The translations under genes and the position numbers were made by a program. A DNA stretch of 64,000 nucleotides from Candidatus Poribacteria bacterium (GTDB taxonomy: Bacteria; Poribacteria; WGA-4E; WGA-3G): positions 2,304,001 to 2,368,000 of the forward strand of contig CAXXLX010000001.1 of NCBI GenBank assembly GCA_963665235.2, given 5' to 3'. The notes under the pieces were generated by a model. The model was not told the DNA's origin, ran no database searches, and saw only the letters and a list, made by a program, of their open reading frames with translations. Positions 19,808 through 24,903 of this stretch are shown in pieces. Position 1 is the stretch's first letter. Every line of letters starts with the position of its first letter.

Positions 19808-21625
19808 GTGGCATCTTATGAAACTTTTGACTATGATGTATTAATAATCGGTGCGGGCGGAGCAGGACTGCGCGCCGCCATTGAGGCAGCTACAGGTGAC
19901 CTGAAGGTCGGTCTCGTTTGCAAATCTCTACTCGGAAAAGCACACACCGTTATGGCGGAGGGCGGAGTCGCCGCCGCATTGGCAAATGTGGACGAAAGGG
20001 ACAGCTGGCGGGTTCATTTCGCTGACACCATGCGTGGCGGACAATACCTTTCTAACGCCCGAATGGCTGAACTTCATGCAAAGGAATCACCGGACCGCGT
20101 CCGCGAACTTGAAGCATGGGGGGCACTCTTCGATCGGACCCAAGATGGCAGTATCCTCCAACGTAATTTTGGCGGACATCAGTACCCACGGCTTGCACAC
20201 GTCGGTGACCGAACCGGTTTAGAGATGATTCGTGCTTTGCAAGACCACGGTATTCATCAAGGCATTGAGGTCCACATGGAGAATACCGTCGTTTCACTTC
20301 TCAAAACGGGTGATAGGGTTTCAGGTGCATTCGGCTACGAACGCGAAAAGGGACGGTTCAAAATCTTCGCTGCAAAGGCGGTCGTGTTGGCAACCGGGGG
20401 TGTCGGCAAGGCGTATAAAATCACTAGCAACAGCTGGGAATATACCGGCGACGGTCATTCGCTTGCCTACCACGCGGGGGCAGAACTGATTGATATGGAG
20501 TTTGTGCAATTTCATCCGACCGGCATGGTGTGGCCTCCGAGTGTGCGCGGAATTTTGGTTACAGAAGGCGTTCGCGGCGAAGGCGGCATCCTTAAAAATA
20601 GCGAAGGCAAACGTTTCATGTTTGACGACATTCCGGAACTCTATGTGAACCAAACAGCCGACAATCCCGAAGAAGGATGGCTCTATACACAAGGCGACCG
20701 CGAGGCACGTAGACCCCCGGAATTGCTAACTCGCGACCATGTTGCACGTTGTATCGTCCGAGAAGTACAGGAGGGCAGAGGCAGTCCTCACGGCGGAGTC
20801 TTTTTAGATATTGCGTGGATTCGGGAAAAACTCCCCAACGCCCCAGAACACATCCGCAGGAAACTGCCGAGCATGTACCATCAATTCAAGGAACTCGCTG
20901 ACATTGACATCACGGCTGAACCTATGGAGGTAGGACCAACGACACACTATATTATGGGCGGTATCCGCGTTGATGCCGATACCCAAATGACATGTGTGCC
21001 TGGCCTTTTCGCAGCAGGTGAGTGTGCAGCGGGATTACACGGTGCCAATCGCCTCGGTGGCAACTCCCTATCCGACCTGCTTGTCTTCGGAAAACGGGCG
21101 GGTGAATACGCCGCACAATTTGCATCCGAAAACGGATCGGTACCGCTCGAGGAGAGCGGCATAGATGATATTGCACAGCAGGTCCTCAAATCCTTTGACA
21201 ACCCAGCGGAGGGCGATAACCCGTACCAGATTCAGGCGCAACTTCAAGACAAAATGCAGGAATTAGTAGGAATTGCAAGAAGTCAAGAGAGTCTGACGCA
21301 AGCCCTGGCGGAGATTCAGATTTTGCGGGAAAAGGCGGACAATGTCCACACTATCGGCAATCGAGAATATAATGCAGGGTGGCACACCGCGCTTGACCTT
21401 GACTGCCTGCTCACTATTTCAGAGGCTATTGCACTCGCGGCACTTGAACGGAAAGCCAGTATCGGCGCGCATTCCCGCGATGATTACCCCGAAAAGGAGG
21501 AGCCGGCGGCAGGGAAATATAACACCATCGTCCGAAAAGCTGACGATGGCACGATGGCTATTCGGCGTGACCCCGTTCCTGAATTATCTGAAGAACTTCA
21601 GAAAATCATAGCCGAAATAGGATAA
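19808..21625 (+). CDS. sdhA: succinate dehydrogenase/fumarate reductase flavoprotein
   Basis: IGAGGAG, AHTVMAEGG, QFHPTG, HYIMGG, HGANRLGGNSL. Confidence 0.96.
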   Translation: MASYETFDYDVLIIGAGGAGLRAAIEAATGDLKVGLVCKSLLGKAHTVMAEGGVAAALANVDERDSWRVHFADTMRGGQYLSNARMAELHAKESPDRVRELEAWGALFDRTQDGSILQRNFGGHQYPRLAHVGDRTGLEMIRALQDHGIHQGIEVHMENTVVSLLKTGDRVSGAFGYEREKGRFKIFAAKAVVLATGGVGKAYKITSNSWEYTGDGHSLAYHAGAELIDMEFVQFHPTGMVWPPSVRGILVTEGVRGEGGILKNSEGKRFMFDDIPELYVNQTADNPEEGWLYTQGDREARRPPELLTRDHVARCIVREVQEGRGSPHGGVFLDIAWIREKLPNAPEHIRRKLPSMYHQFKELADIDITAEPMEVGPTTHYIMGGIRVDADTQMTCVPGLFAAGECAAGLHGANRLGGNSLSDLLVFGKRAGEYAAQFASENGSVPLEESGIDDIAQQVLKSFDNPAEGDNPYQIQAQLQDKMQELVGIARSQESLTQALAEIQILREKADNVHTIGNREYNAGWHTALDLDCLLTISEAIALAALERKASIGAHSRDDYPEKEEPAAGKYNTIVRKADDGTMAIRRDPVPELSEELQKIIAEIG

Positions 21626-21657
21626 GCACAACACCCCGGAGGAAAGCGAAAAATGAC

Positions 21658-22080
21658 GGATAAACCTTAACAGGTTTCCCAAGCATTTATGCTTGGGTCC
21701 AACCCCGTTTTTGTGTTGATAAGAAAAGATATTTGCTTTTGAGTTATTTTTGTGATATAATATTAACAGCATCGTGGATAGGAGTTCTACGCTGCACACG
21801 ACTCCGTGCGGGTCCTATCCCTCACCTGTCCAATGGTGTGTGATGTTGATGCGAAATCATCTCAAATATGTTAGTTAAAAAGTACGGTGGGGCACACCGG
21901 AATTCACGCTTGTGGAGTCCAACTAAGACCCGCTAACTCTCATGCCAATGAGAGGGGGGCACGAGAGACAGGCTTCAGGCAAACAGCCTGCTCTTAAGCA
22001 GGAACAGCCATTTAGGAGGCAAATATGTCTACTGATTTAAGAGCTAAGAACCCCACTCCTTTAGGTGTGGGAGATGTCAG
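21658..22080 (+). mobile_element. non-autonomous IS200/IS605 (TnpB-derived) element, 423 bp, inserted in sdhB codon 2
   Basis: Preceded by TGAC; left-end hairpin CCCAAGCATTTATGCTTGGG; tnpB 3' remnant (STVGHTGIHACG); right-end hairpin CCCACTCCTTTAGGTGTGGG then TCAG; no TSD. Confidence 0.88.
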
Positions 22081-22816
22081 TAAAGCGACTTTTAGAATCT
22101 GGCGCGGCGATGCAGACGCAGCACAATTTGTGGATTACGAAACCGAAATCGGCGAAGGCATGGTAGTCCTAGACGCTGTCCACCGTATCCAAGCCGAACA
22201 AGCAAATGACCTCGCTGTCAGATGGAACTGTAAGGCAGGAAAATGTGGCTCCTGCTCCGCAGAGGTGAACGGCAACCCCAAATTAATGTGTATGACACGG
22301 CTCAACGATTTACCGCTTGACGAACCGATCACCATCGAACCGATGCGTGCATTTCCCCTCATCAGAGACCTCGTTACAGACGTATCATGGAATTTTAAAG
22401 TCAAAAAGAAGATGAAACCTTTCACACCGCGCCCCCCTGACGCAGAGGATGGAACGTGGCGCATGGAACAGGAGGACATTGAGCATATTCAAGAATTCCG
22501 AAAATGCATTGAATGTTTTCTCTGTCAAGATGTTTGTCACGTCCTGCGCGAGCATGACCTCCACGATGAATTTGTCGGACCCCGTTTCTTCGTCTACGCC
22601 GCCTCTTTGGAGATGCATCCGATAGATACTGAAAATCGGTTAGAAGAATTGAAGGATTCGGACGGTATCGGGTACTGTAACATCACTAAATGCTGTACGA
22701 AAGTCTGTCCGGAGCATATCACAATTACGGATAACGCAATTATTCCGCTTAAGGAACGCGTCGTCGACGAATTCTATGACCCGATTAAAAAGCTCTTCCG
22801 TATTTTTAAGGGGTAA
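22025..22816 (+). CDS. sdhB: succinate dehydrogenase Fe-S subunit with an element-derived N-terminus
   Basis: CKAGKCGSC, CIECFLC, CNITKCCTKVCP. Confidence 0.95.
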   Translation: MSTDLRAKNPTPLGVGDVSKATFRIWRGDADAAQFVDYETEIGEGMVVLDAVHRIQAEQANDLAVRWNCKAGKCGSCSAEVNGNPKLMCMTRLNDLPLDEPITIEPMRAFPLIRDLVTDVSWNFKVKKKMKPFTPRPPDAEDGTWRMEQEDIEHIQEFRKCIECFLCQDVCHVLREHDLHDEFVGPRFFVYAASLEMHPIDTENRLEELKDSDGIGYCNITKCCTKVCPEHITITDNAIIPLKERVVDEFYDPIKKLFRIFKG

Positions 22817-22835
22817 GCCTATCGCAATGCTTGAT

Positions 22836-23578
22836 GGATAAACCTTAACAAGTTTCCCAAGCATTTATGCTTGGGGCCAACCCCCGTGTTTTGTGCGTTG
22901 ATAAGAAAAGATATTTGCTTTTGAGTTGTTTTTGTGGTATAATTACCCTGTCAGGTTGGCAAGGATAACGCGTGTAACCTCTTGGTTCCGTGCTTGCCTC
23001 CCACTTGTTAGGGGATAAACGCCTGGTACCTGATGGTTTCCGATGATAAAGACACACAAAATCACGTTAAATCCAAATCGCGAGCAGATAGTTTGGTTTT
23101 TTCAGCAATGCGGTTATGCGAAGTTTGCTTATAATCAAGCCTTGTCTGATTTTAAAACCGAACTTGCCTTGGATAACTTCTTATGCAAAAATCGCCTTTC
23201 GAAGCGCTTCAATAAGAAAAAGAAAGCTTTTGAGTGGACCCCCTCACAAGATCAACGTGCTGCGAAATACGCGATAGACCATCTCGGCTGCGCGATTGAT
23301 AACTGGATAGGAAAGCGTGCGGGTTTTCCGAAGTTTAAGCGTCGCGGTTGCAAGCATTCCTACCAAACGGACGAACAATCAGTTCGGATAGAGACTATCA
23401 TTGTCAAAAGTGTGGATTTCGCGAAGAGCGCGATGTGAATGCGGCTCTCAACTTACGACAAGTCGCGGTGGGATACACCGAGACATAAAACGCTTATGGA
23501 GTCCGTGTAAGCCCTCTATTGAGGAGGCTTTGGACGATGAAGTAAGAGGTCCCACTCCTTTAGGGGTGGGAGTATCAC
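22836..23578 (+). mobile_element. IS200/IS605 (IS1341-like) element with internally deleted tnpB
   Basis: Preceded by TTGAT; first ~105 bp nearly identical to the 21658 element; right-end hairpin then TCAC. Confidence 0.9.
23043..23489 (+). pseudogene. tnpB: tnpB remnant: N-terminal HTH joined out of frame to the Zn-finger/RuvC-III end
   Basis: MIKTHKITLNPN...AYNQAL...GFPKFK, then a shifted frame YHCQKCGFREERDVNAALNL. Confidence 0.9.
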
Positions 23579-23769
23579 GAAGACAGTCTACTCCCGCCTA
23601 GCGTAGAGTTAATTAACTTAGATGTTGAGGATTTAAGCATTGACCCCTATGAATTTTTGGAATTATCGCCATAAAATCATTGGTGTCACTCAAACTGCTA
23701 CCCCTTTAGTGTACGAGTATATAGAATTAACTATAATGTCTTTTTCCCTATCCCGGAGATGCTAAAACA

Positions 23770-24903
23770 ATGGCAAGCAAAAACGATATTTTAAGAGTAG
23801 GTGTGATTGGTCCTGGCGGTGCTGGCCGTGGCAACACACTCGGCTTTGCAACCCGTCCCGATGCGCAAGTTGTCGCTGCTGCGGATGCGCATGAGGGAAG
23901 TTTAGATGCGTTAGAAAACGCGCTTCAGCAACGGGTTGAAGATTATAAACCGAATAGTCTTAAGCGATATCTCGGTGAACACGAATTTATCGAGATGCTC
24001 AATCATGAAGACCTTGATATTGTGGGGGTTTTCTCACCGCATTCCTTGCATGATATTCATGTGAAGTACGCGCTCCGCGCGGGGTGTCATGTCATCGTTG
24101 AAAAGCCGATGGCGAATATTGTCGGGGATGCAATTACGATAACCAAAATTGCGCTCGGCAGCGAATTGCACCTTGTCGGCGGGTATCAGCGTCACTATGA
24201 CAATACCTATATAGCTGGCAGACGTGCGATTGCGGAGGGCCGCATCGGGACCCTCAAAAAGTTTGAGGTCTACATGGCACAGCGATGGGGGGCTGGTGGT
24301 TGGCGTGGTGACCCACGTTTTTCAGGCGGTGGACAACCCAACGACTCTGGCAGTCATCTCCAGGATATTTTTCTCTGGATGACAGGCGCGCTTCCCGCGG
24401 AGGTCTACGGCACAACCGACATGAAATTTGAGGACAACGACGGAAATTTAGTCCCGAAGTTCGTCGAGATTAATTCCTACTCCGACGTAAAACTAGATAA
24501 CGGGGCTGAAGGCACTATTACTATCCTCGGTAACACACGCGTCGGATTCGAAGAGTGGGTGATTCTCGAGGGTGATGAAGGCACCATTGAAATCAAGGGT
24601 GGCATCCGTTATATCCCCAAAGGTGGAGAAGCGGAACCGCTTGAATATCCAAGACCCGAAGGATACCCCAGCAGTAAGGTGGACCAACTTGTCGGCCTCG
24701 CCAAAGGCAACTACGATACGAACTACACATCCGGGGTCAACGGCATCCGAACGAGTTGGTTGACAAATTCTATCCTCGAAGCAGGCCGGGGCCCCGAACC
24801 CAAAAACCGCGTGGATTGCAATAACCTTATAGAGAAAGAGGGGTACAATTACCAAGCGATTTTAGACTTAATCGATGAATGTGCATCGAAAAAGATGTAT
24901 TGA
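23770..24903 (+). CDS. Gfo/Idh/MocA oxidoreductase
   Basis: VGVIGPGGAG, HVIVEKPMA, SGGG..DSGSH. Confidence 0.92.
   Translation: MASKNDILRVGVIGPGGAGRGNTLGFATRPDAQVVAAADAHEGSLDALENALQQRVEDYKPNSLKRYLGEHEFIEMLNHEDLDIVGVFSPHSLHDIHVKYALRAGCHVIVEKPMANIVGDAITITKIALGSELHLVGGYQRHYDNTYIAGRRAIAEGRIGTLKKFEVYMAQRWGAGGWRGDPRFSGGGQPNDSGSHLQDIFLWMTGALPAEVYGTTDMKFEDNDGNLVPKFVEINSYSDVKLDNGAEGTITILGNTRVGFEEWVILEGDEGTIEIKGGIRYIPKGGEAEPLEYPRPEGYPSSKVDQLVGLAKGNYDTNYTSGVNGIRTSWLTNSILEAGRGPEPKNRVDCNNLIEKEGYNYQAILDLIDECASKKMY

Follow-up and report, generated by a model that had tools for sequence, protein, structure and literature searches.

A tnpB-less IS200/IS605 element in codon 2 of sdhB in a Candidatus Poribacteria genome carries a putative replacement start whose reading phase matches start-codon targets

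PATEs are a group of tnpB-less IS200/IS605 derivatives that keep the ends of the parental transposon and often its omega-RNA (Dyall-Smith et al. 2011, PMC3119063; Meers et al. 2023, 10.1101/2023.03.14.532601). IStrons, which are IS605 or IS607 elements with a group I intron, limit the damage they cause by splicing, whereas canonical IS605/IS607 elements are stated to lack such mitigation (Zedaveinyte et al. 2023, 10.1101/2023.11.20.567912); in the available portions of these sources, only the intron-bearing IStrons have so far been described as limiting the damage of landing inside genes. Outside this transposon family, the REP2 repeats of Neisseria and the IR repeats of Borrelia plasmids bring a promoter, a ribosome-binding site (RBS) and an ATG to genes, and small repeats may be fused in frame to the 5' ends of genes (Delihas 2011, PMC3184786, in the part available). 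Here, we analyze a 64,000-nucleotide stretch of a Candidatus Poribacteria genome (GenBank assembly GCA_963665235.2, contig CAXXLX010000001.1, positions 2,304,001 to 2,368,000), referred to as the window, in which a 423-bp tnpB-less IS200/IS605 element, named E1, interrupts codon 2 of the conserved respiratory gene sdhB and carries a putative start signal in frame with it. The comparison set comprises 159 genomes of the order, including the genome of this window (G000).

E1 resembles PATEs in its subterminal hairpins, in its lack of inverted repeats, of a target duplication and of an open reading frame (ORF), and in the deletion of a core between a part made of the left end and 5' untranslated region (5' UTR) and a part made of the omega-RNA region and right end, so that mobilization, and TnpB activity if there is any, would have to be supplied in trans. 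The available text of the papers cited above describes no PATE that occupies a start codon, and none with a translation start whose frame leaves through the right end, as in E1. With IStrons it has in common that a TnpB-family transposon lies inside a gene, that the damage would be limited, and that the omega-RNA would span the junction of element and gene, so that the making of a guide RNA and the expression of the gene would draw on the same transcript. However, splicing of an IStron restores the wild-type protein, whereas E1 has no ribozyme match and the repair would be a restart of translation that changes the N-terminus. Like the REP2 and IR repeats, E1 is a dispersed repeat with a promoter, an RBS and an ATG in frame with a host gene, a likeness in working and not in descent; the available account of those repeats does not describe IS200/IS605 ends with a guide-RNA scaffold, or a reading phase matched to the target. 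What is new here is the start signal of a right-end subfamily, its open frame, a two-base phase that matches the target motif, and the recurrence at start codons. A full-text literature search found no description, for IS200/IS605 elements, of a right-end start that is phase-matched to a target containing a start codon, although the supplementary insertion-site tables of TnpB papers may hold cases.

The native start of sdhB is still recognizable as a GGAGG and an ATG ahead of the element. After ATG-AC, GGATAAACC begins at 21658, and the conserved sdhB frame resumes at 22081/22082. The five bases ATGAC serve both as the native start of sdhB and as the target-adjacent motif (TAM) of E1, and the frame of the native ATG (21653) now ends after five codons, inside the element. 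A preliminary description of this DNA, made from the sequence alone, had placed the element directly after ATGAC and had predicted that removal of 21658-22080 would restore an in-frame ATG ACT AAA GCG ACT TTT. Both its coordinates and this reconstruction are borne out by a 325-nt contig from the metatranscriptome X7, which joins 21657 to 22081 with 423 nt skipped and from which we define the boundaries of E1. The joint reads ATGAC/TAAAGCG (Met-Thr-Lys-Ala) and contains no ambiguous base, so there is no target duplication, as the earlier suggestion of an IS605-type insertion 3' of a TAM had implied. The contig differs from the window at 6 positions in 242 nt (97.5% identity). The orthologues tell the same story, with all 29 compared having an RBS and an ATG at the native place and a single variable codon between this ATG and AAA-GCN-ACT-TTT-AGA-ATC-TGG; the AAA codon lies 5-267 nt past the sdhA stop in these relatives versus 456 nt here. 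Since contigs of runs X1 and X4 span both E1 junctions without error and a contig of X5, from another study, spans the right junction, the insertion is no assembly quirk. Note here that the junction evidence comes from assembled contigs, and that X1-X4 appear to be DNA runs and X7 an RNA library of a related community. A further joint in X1 and X4, from 22792 to 23779, was set aside as unreliable, one of its sides being just 20 nt long.

In its present form, sdhB is covered by a single ORF (22025-22816; 263 amino acids), which starts within E1, crosses the right-end hairpin and continues into the gene. The 2Fe-2S domain (Pfam Fer2_3) is found from residue 23. The SdhB proteins of relatives, at 246-248 residues, align to this ORF only from residue 17-19, and the net addition of the leader is therefore 17 residues, the approximate length that the preliminary description had given for this read-through. 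An in-frame TAG at 22013-22015 makes ATG 22025 the first possible start; it is served by a full Shine-Dalgarno sequence (SD) at 5 nt, and the native sdhB site is likewise of the SD type. The sole usable start in this frame thus falls within the omega-RNA region. The peptide predicted for an SdhB started within E1 is MSTDLRAKNPTPLGVGDVSK. We found no protein with this leader in the protein collection, and two longer relatives among five sequences compared, P0001 and P0006, have upstream extensions unrelated to it, which are probably over-called starts. The nearest named relatives of this SdhB come from Candidatus Poribacteria metagenome-assembled genomes. The gene is single-copy in G000 and present in 24 of the 24 other family genomes searched. 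At the 152 columns that are invariant among the 29 orthologues, its product has two differences, both conservative, compared with 0-4 in the other copies, so that by sequence the gene appears without sign of decay.

In the sdhA-sdhB spacer of many relatives (L025-L053) we observed other small repeats, for example copies of GTAGCCCGTAATGTAATGGAG and runs of heptamers, always upstream of the RBS.

Our comparisons place E1 among the PATEs because of its ends, its missing core ORF and its homology to tnpB-flanking regions: it is an IS200/IS605 derivative inserted, without duplication, 3' of the TAM-like ATGAC. No long ORF exists within 21658-22024. A tnpB-bearing element of genome G132 ends on the right in the same 35 nt as E1, both of its subterminal hairpins also occur in tnpB-bearing elements, terminal inverted repeats are absent, and its scaffold is 79% identical over 187 nt to C1:3254973-3255158 of G000. 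The promoter that the preliminary description had recognized, TTGCTT and TATAAT 17 nt apart, is present, and its layout is shared by 8/9 left ends of this type. The genome holds 44 matches to the TnpB zinc ribbon and 13 to the Y1 transposase (Y1_Tnp). No full-length copy of E1 was found elsewhere in this genome or in the 158 others. The closest structural relative is a PATE of 409 bp with 17 copies in two genomes of another genus. Flanks of left ends of the E1 type read TTGAC in 4/8 cases, and otherwise TTGAT, ATGAC, ATGAA or ATAAA; among the copies of the right-end family for which a left end was found, all 38 besides E1 have TGAA in front of them, E2 alone having TGAT. E2 is a decayed sister element that begins 15 nt past the sdhB stop, so that sdhB has an element of the same orientation on either side. 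Its left end is 91% identical to that of E1, with the same promoter and a similar right hairpin, and it retains GAGGAGG and an ATG, but the short frame ends after two codons. A search of window positions 21000-23000 and of related loci against Rfam gave nothing at E<=1 except a weak Chlorobi-1 match in the window (19.3 bits versus a threshold of 50) and chance matches to miRNA and KRAS families in the related loci.

The PATE of 408-410 bp forms a homogeneous family of 17 copies in G098 and G101 (L234-L250), two insertions being common to both genomes. It has the layout of E1, that is, the left end, promoter, pseudoknot motif, long scaffold and right hairpin, without a start signal.

The start signal appears to be a trait of the right-end subfamily to which E1 belongs, and not a one-off. 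The right-end hairpin of E1 was found at 61 places in 21/159 genomes, and a reversed control pattern at none. Of the 59 places outside G000, all of which were examined, 53 have a recognizable right-end tail and six do not (L226-L230, L249). An SD and an ATG precede the hairpin in 19/53, as GGGAGG(C), 5-8 nt and ATG in elements whose scaffold is of a shorter type. In all of these 19 copies, as in E1, the frame stays open to the last base of the element, and the stretch from the ATG through that base measures 44, 50, 53 or 56 nt. Each of these lengths is 2 mod 3, which leaves two element bases in the split codon. Two further copies have GTG or TTG instead of ATG, and a rule that admits only ATG undercounts such starts (L222 and L191 use GTG, and L214 uses TTG). 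Since the 44-nt class reads the hairpin in another frame, the leader peptide is not conserved; openness and phase are the only properties conserved among the start-bearing right ends. In other right-end families of G000, a TAG in the hairpin loop closes that phase (median 5 open codons; 50/53 ends). The target motif of the subfamily is NTGAA (TGAC for E1 and TGAT for E2), and phase 2 is exactly the phase required if the NTG of this motif is a start codon. A right end that is open in the NTG+2 phase, and often supplied with an SD and a start, would therefore make start codons followed by AA or AC tolerated landing sites. The preliminary description had asked whether AGGAGG-ATG is conserved among copies of the element, and here the outcome is divided: an SD and a start in this phase are common in the subfamily, but the specific signal of E1 is absent from its position in the 13 aligned long-scaffold relatives, the closest in omega-RNA, and in the 409-bp PATE, even though the hairpin that bears it sits at the same position in relatives.

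Among the other right ends of G000, the frame is open into a downstream ORF in 8/53; those other than E1 either are followed by a start that belongs to the gene itself or break up a long ORF. At two right ends, C1:63520(-) and C1:893214(+), the element adjoins a long open frame, of 468 and 256 codons respectively, and is followed by no start signal; these may be genes interrupted internally. One copy, L072, has an ATGAA flank yet neither an SD nor a gene start. An overlap of the tnpB stop with the ATG of the 44-nt class was considered and withdrawn, as the tnpB ORFs end 47-50 nt upstream.

When the left and right flanks of each insertion are joined in silico and the frame is read from the NTG of the target, 17 distinct insertions that bear a start can be assessed, their flanks being known on both sides. 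Seven of these 17 interrupt codon 2 of an ORF with 120 or more codons, all seven on the same strand as the gene and with the element's start in frame with it. Uninterrupted orthologues confirm six of the seven, including sdhB, and the other five are five genes in five other genomes; the seventh is L196 in G118. One of the five encodes a nitroreductase (G132), in which position 1 of the Pfam profile falls at residue 5 and which is present in 109/112 family genomes; its orthologues start with ATG-AAY-NTT-TTT-GAK-GC in 8/8 cases, and a ninth, 97% identical (G155), is an exact empty site. The others encode a DUF3108-like secreted protein (G005; uninterrupted in 3/3 indexed orthologues), a permease (G153; 4/4 orthologues), a lipoprotein-like protein (G137; 5/5) and a signal-peptide protein (G116; 5/5), the last being the target of a 433-bp PATE that uses GTG. 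None of the 17 start-bearing insertions is at an internal in-frame position of a long gene. The copies that lack a usable start comprise 18 distinct insertions, namely E2, three small PATEs and 14 sites in the 409-bp PATE family; six of the 18 follow ATGAA, yet not one coincides with the beginning of an ORF of more than 46 codons. The contrast in codon-2 insertions into ORFs of at least 120 codons (7/17 vs 0/18) gives a one-sided Fisher value of 0.003, and a generous count of start-like sites in G000 (1077 of 98,908 TGA[AC] sites) gives a binomial value of 3e-10, both of which overstate significance, as the copies are related by descent and the control family belongs to another genus. The direction of the start-codon bias is nevertheless clear, and the pattern across genomes favors the view that hosts tolerate fusions at sites that do not accept plain insertions. 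Left out of the seven were L202 and L203 (GTG starts; 99 and 65 codons), L214 (103 codons) and L220 (43 codons). We also dropped L262, at a contig end, L204, a duplicate of L201, and L245 and L243, which are the L234 and L235 insertions in a sister genome; L197, L208, L215 and L170 carry the start signal, but no left end was found for them.

Taken together, these observations suggest the following course of events. E1 would have moved as single-stranded DNA to the 3' side of ATGAC, which is the sdhB start codon plus two bases, leaving a native start that would now give only a peptide of five codons. Transcripts would arise from the promoter of E1, and probably also by read-through from sdhA, with a 5' UTR of ~255 nt that contains the pseudoknot motif and the omega-RNA scaffold. 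Ribosomes would then initiate at AGGAGG-N5-ATG within the scaffold, cross the right-end hairpin and enter sdhB in frame, to make an SdhB with MSTDLRAKNPTPLGVGDVS in place of Met-Thr. We consider it likely that the E1-borne start keeps sdhB expressed in this way, with transcription from the E1 promoter, use of ATG 22025 and activity of the extended SdhB. The preliminary description had already spoken of the rescue of a core gene; this idea gains comparative support from the five other codon-2 genes in five genomes, while its specific step, SdhB synthesis from 22025, is predicted from sequence. If so, a conserved respiratory gene is expressed from a transposon promoter. More generally, the layout on start codons probably keeps the hit genes working, judging from the comparisons above. 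A restart of translation in a phase dictated by the target would then be a second and simpler way to limit damage, next to that of the IStrons, and would help to account for the persistence of such elements in compact genomes, with the expression of the host gene tied to an RNA that doubles as a guide scaffold for TnpB. Genes of this kind will receive wrong or unusual N-termini from gene callers.

Could the subfamily have evolved such an "exit start", in which the omega-RNA region supplies an SD and a start codon, the right end is kept open in phase 2 and the target, NTGA-A/C, is often a start codon plus two bases, with gene starts serving as safe harbors? This wider proposal is tentative, and we lean slightly to the doubtful side. 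If it holds, landing would replace codons 1 and 2 of the host gene by a leader of 15-19 residues and place the gene under the promoter of the element, and a single stretch of RNA would be both guide-RNA scaffold and translation-initiation region, so that binding and processing by TnpB would compete with translation, a splicing-free counterpart of the IStron conflict.

Several observations weigh against these readings. The SD-ATG of E1 lies in a different hairpin from the one shared by short-type elements and has no counterpart in its closest relatives, so that for E1 it may be a lucky accident. An insertion younger than ~2.5% divergence from the X7 strain favors a start that was already present before insertion. 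The SD and AUG fall in a weak predicted hairpin (-6.9 kcal/mol for 41 nt) that is no better than those of shuffled sequences. The E1 promoter is missing from a simple consensus promoter scan because its -35 box matches at only 3/6 positions. Synonymous sites between G000 and the compared relatives are saturated, so that the ratio of nonsynonymous to synonymous change (dN/dS) can neither date nor test the sdhB insertion. As to the recurrence, copies within a genome are kin, which inflates the tests, the control without a start comes from two genomes of a genus unlike that of most start-bearing copies, and each codon-2 insertion is limited to one genome with the nearest orthologue uninterrupted, which makes all of them young. 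That youth also bears on an explanation we regard as unlikely but worth serious weight, in which the insertion inactivated sdhB, the frame from 22025 is open only incidentally, through a right end that happens to have no stop in this phase, and the population tolerates a young pseudogene. An intact ORF proves little for an insertion below ~2.5% divergence from the empty-site relative, particularly with synonymous divergence (dS) saturated against the other relatives, and the phase is open in nearly all subfamily copies, with or without a start. However, the gene that would be lost is the only copy and was found in each of the 24 other family genomes searched, the first in-frame ATG is preceded by a full SD at ideal spacing, and the same allele recurs in contigs of three runs from two studies. 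Knock-outs of dispensable genes should also be scattered over gene bodies, whereas 0/17 insertions are internal and in frame, seven are in codon 2, and copies without a start are never there. It is less probable still that the start-codon bias reflects the target choice of the transposase, through a longer motif or a preference for initiation regions, rather than the survival of rescued genes, which would make the element's start irrelevant. The motif NTGAA/TGAC does naturally overlap ATG-AAx starts, and six insertions of the 409-bp PATE also follow ATGAA; yet this PATE, which shares the left-end type, TAM and right hairpin but has no usable start, lies on the start of an ORF longer than 46 codons at 0/14 sites, and the start-bearing copies hold phase 2 across four length classes.

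The two remaining alternatives concern the route to SdhB itself. Initiation at GTG 22067, within the right-end hairpin, would give a leader of five residues and is in frame with no stop after it, but this codon is preceded by AGG alone at a spacing of 1 nt, lies in the 3' arm of the hairpin, and has no parallel in the related insertions, all of which have their SD and start upstream of the hairpin; we give it only a very slim chance. Removal of E1 from the mRNA by IStron-like splicing, with the joined X7 contig as the spliced transcript, would fit the origin of that contig in an RNA library and the precedent of IStrons of the IS605/IS607 type, which restore genes by splicing exactly at the transposon ends (10.1101/2023.11.20.567912, in the part available). 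Against it, no match to Intron_gpI or another group I or II intron was found at E<=1 in positions 21000-23000 of the window or in eight related loci, the X7 contig is 6/242 bases off the window and hence from another strain, no X7 contig bridges a junction of element and sdhB, and E1 has a conserved internal promoter. Moreover, the base before E1 is C, whereas group I introns normally follow U. Splicing is therefore barely conceivable, and a start within E1 at ATG 22025 remains the reading we prefer.

On the side of the omega-RNA, the TnpB homing model in its general form takes the guide from the right flank of the element (10.1101/2023.03.14.532601, in the part available). By position, the right flank of E1 would be the guide and the restored allele a TAM-flanked target, but E1 itself lacks tnpB, and its ATGAC departs from the TTGAC and NTGAA of relatives. 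The penultimate and terminal hairpins of the scaffold are kept, with ~55 nt fewer than in a copy from G072 and a pseudoknot upstream that has two broken pairs. The preliminary description had proposed a search for an intact cognate tnpB; comparisons of zinc ribbons and scaffolds across G000 identified none. The closest scaffold relative in G000 (79% identity) adjoins a tnpB whose zinc ribbon is split over two frames, and the next (88% over 67 nt) adjoins an intact tnpB with a 402-aa product and a different left end. That a TnpB acting in trans locks the insertion in is speculation, given the lack of tnpB in E1, the split gene beside its closest scaffold relative and the off-consensus ATGAC. 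In 2/3 folded short-type elements the SD pairs with an upstream CCUCC; with one RNA holding both scaffold and initiation region, and the SD paired, a competition like that in IStrons is therefore conceivable.

Contigs of X7 that are 85-95% like 21846-22033 have summed depths of 84-194, versus 3-8 on sdhA and sdhB, although contig depth is a poor measure of expression; this is a weak hint that scaffold RNAs of the E1 family are abundant. Elsewhere in G000, a tandem array with a unit of ~32 nt, AGTGCACAAACTGGAAGTTTATGCTACTATAA, occupies C1:2105908-2106300, between the stop of a 401-aa tnpB and its right end, and the same unit is found upstream of another tnpB-less element at C1:102303. The features of the locus are collected in Table 1.

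Table 1. Features of the sdhB locus in window coordinates, and further copies of the RNA motif in the same genome
Feature	Position	Strand	Basis or remark
sdhA, flavoprotein subunit, operon gene upstream of sdhB	19808..21625	+	605-aa ORF; Pfam FAD_binding_2 (3.7e-93) and Succ_DH_flav_C
Orphaned native sdhB start: GGAGG 21638-21642, ATG 21653-21655, AC of codon 2	21638..21657	+	
E1, tnpB-less IS200/IS605 element (PATE), 423 bp	21658..22080	+	X7 joint; left end 91% identical to that of E2; right-end hairpin family
Left-end subterminal hairpin, CCCAAGCA-TTTA-TGCTTGGG	21678..21697	+	Conserved among compared left ends
E1 promoter: TTGCTT 21733-21738, 17-nt spacer, TATAAT 21756-21761 after TG-N (extended -10)	21733..21761	+	
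Pseudoknotted RNA motif of the E1 5' UTR	21769..21860	+	Two broken pseudoknot pairs in this copy
Omega-RNA scaffold remnant, homologous to tnpB 3' end and downstream region	21880..22080	+	Alignments with 13 relatives
Putative new sdhB start in penultimate scaffold hairpin: AGGAGG 22014-22019, CAAAT, ATG 22025	22014..22027	+	
Right-end hairpin CCCACTCCTTTAGGTGTGGGAG (22052-22073) and 7-nt tail ATGTCAG, translated within the leader	22052..22080	+	
Right flank, would-be guide of an E1 omega-RNA (sdhB codons 2-8)	22081..22100	+	Position only
sdhB in present form: 19-residue element-encoded leader and conserved 244 residues	22025..22816	+	ORF list, Pfam
E2, decayed sister element, internally deleted tnpB, after TTGAT	22836..23578	+	Pfam HTH_OrfB_IS605 in ORF 23043-23438; zinc-ribbon remnant 23363-23455
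Other copies of the RNA motif in G000	C1:892519, 1653664, 2705680(-), 851313, 102437, 494725, 1263273, 185514(-), 459023(-); C2:751169(-), 774664		

The 5' UTR of E1 also contains an RNA motif of ~90 nt, which directly follows the promoter of tnpB-less IS200/IS605 elements. Its layout is that of a helix, P1, which encloses a hairpin, and a second hairpin that follows and whose loop pairs with an internal loop of P1. Aligned over 14 copies found in 8 genomes, the motif has 98.1% of its cells paired, and 11/26 pairs vary on both sides, four of these 11 lying in the pseudoknot helix; this level of pairing and covariation was reached by 0/500 shuffles, and no slid register came near it. By this covariation, the motif is a real RNA structure. 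A search of G000 with the model R1, in which 150 of 1450 candidates were scored, gave 12 copies, all of them in tnpB-less elements, and the motif has no match in Rfam. Several tnpB 5' UTRs of G000 show, by eye, the same architecture as this motif with another sequence.

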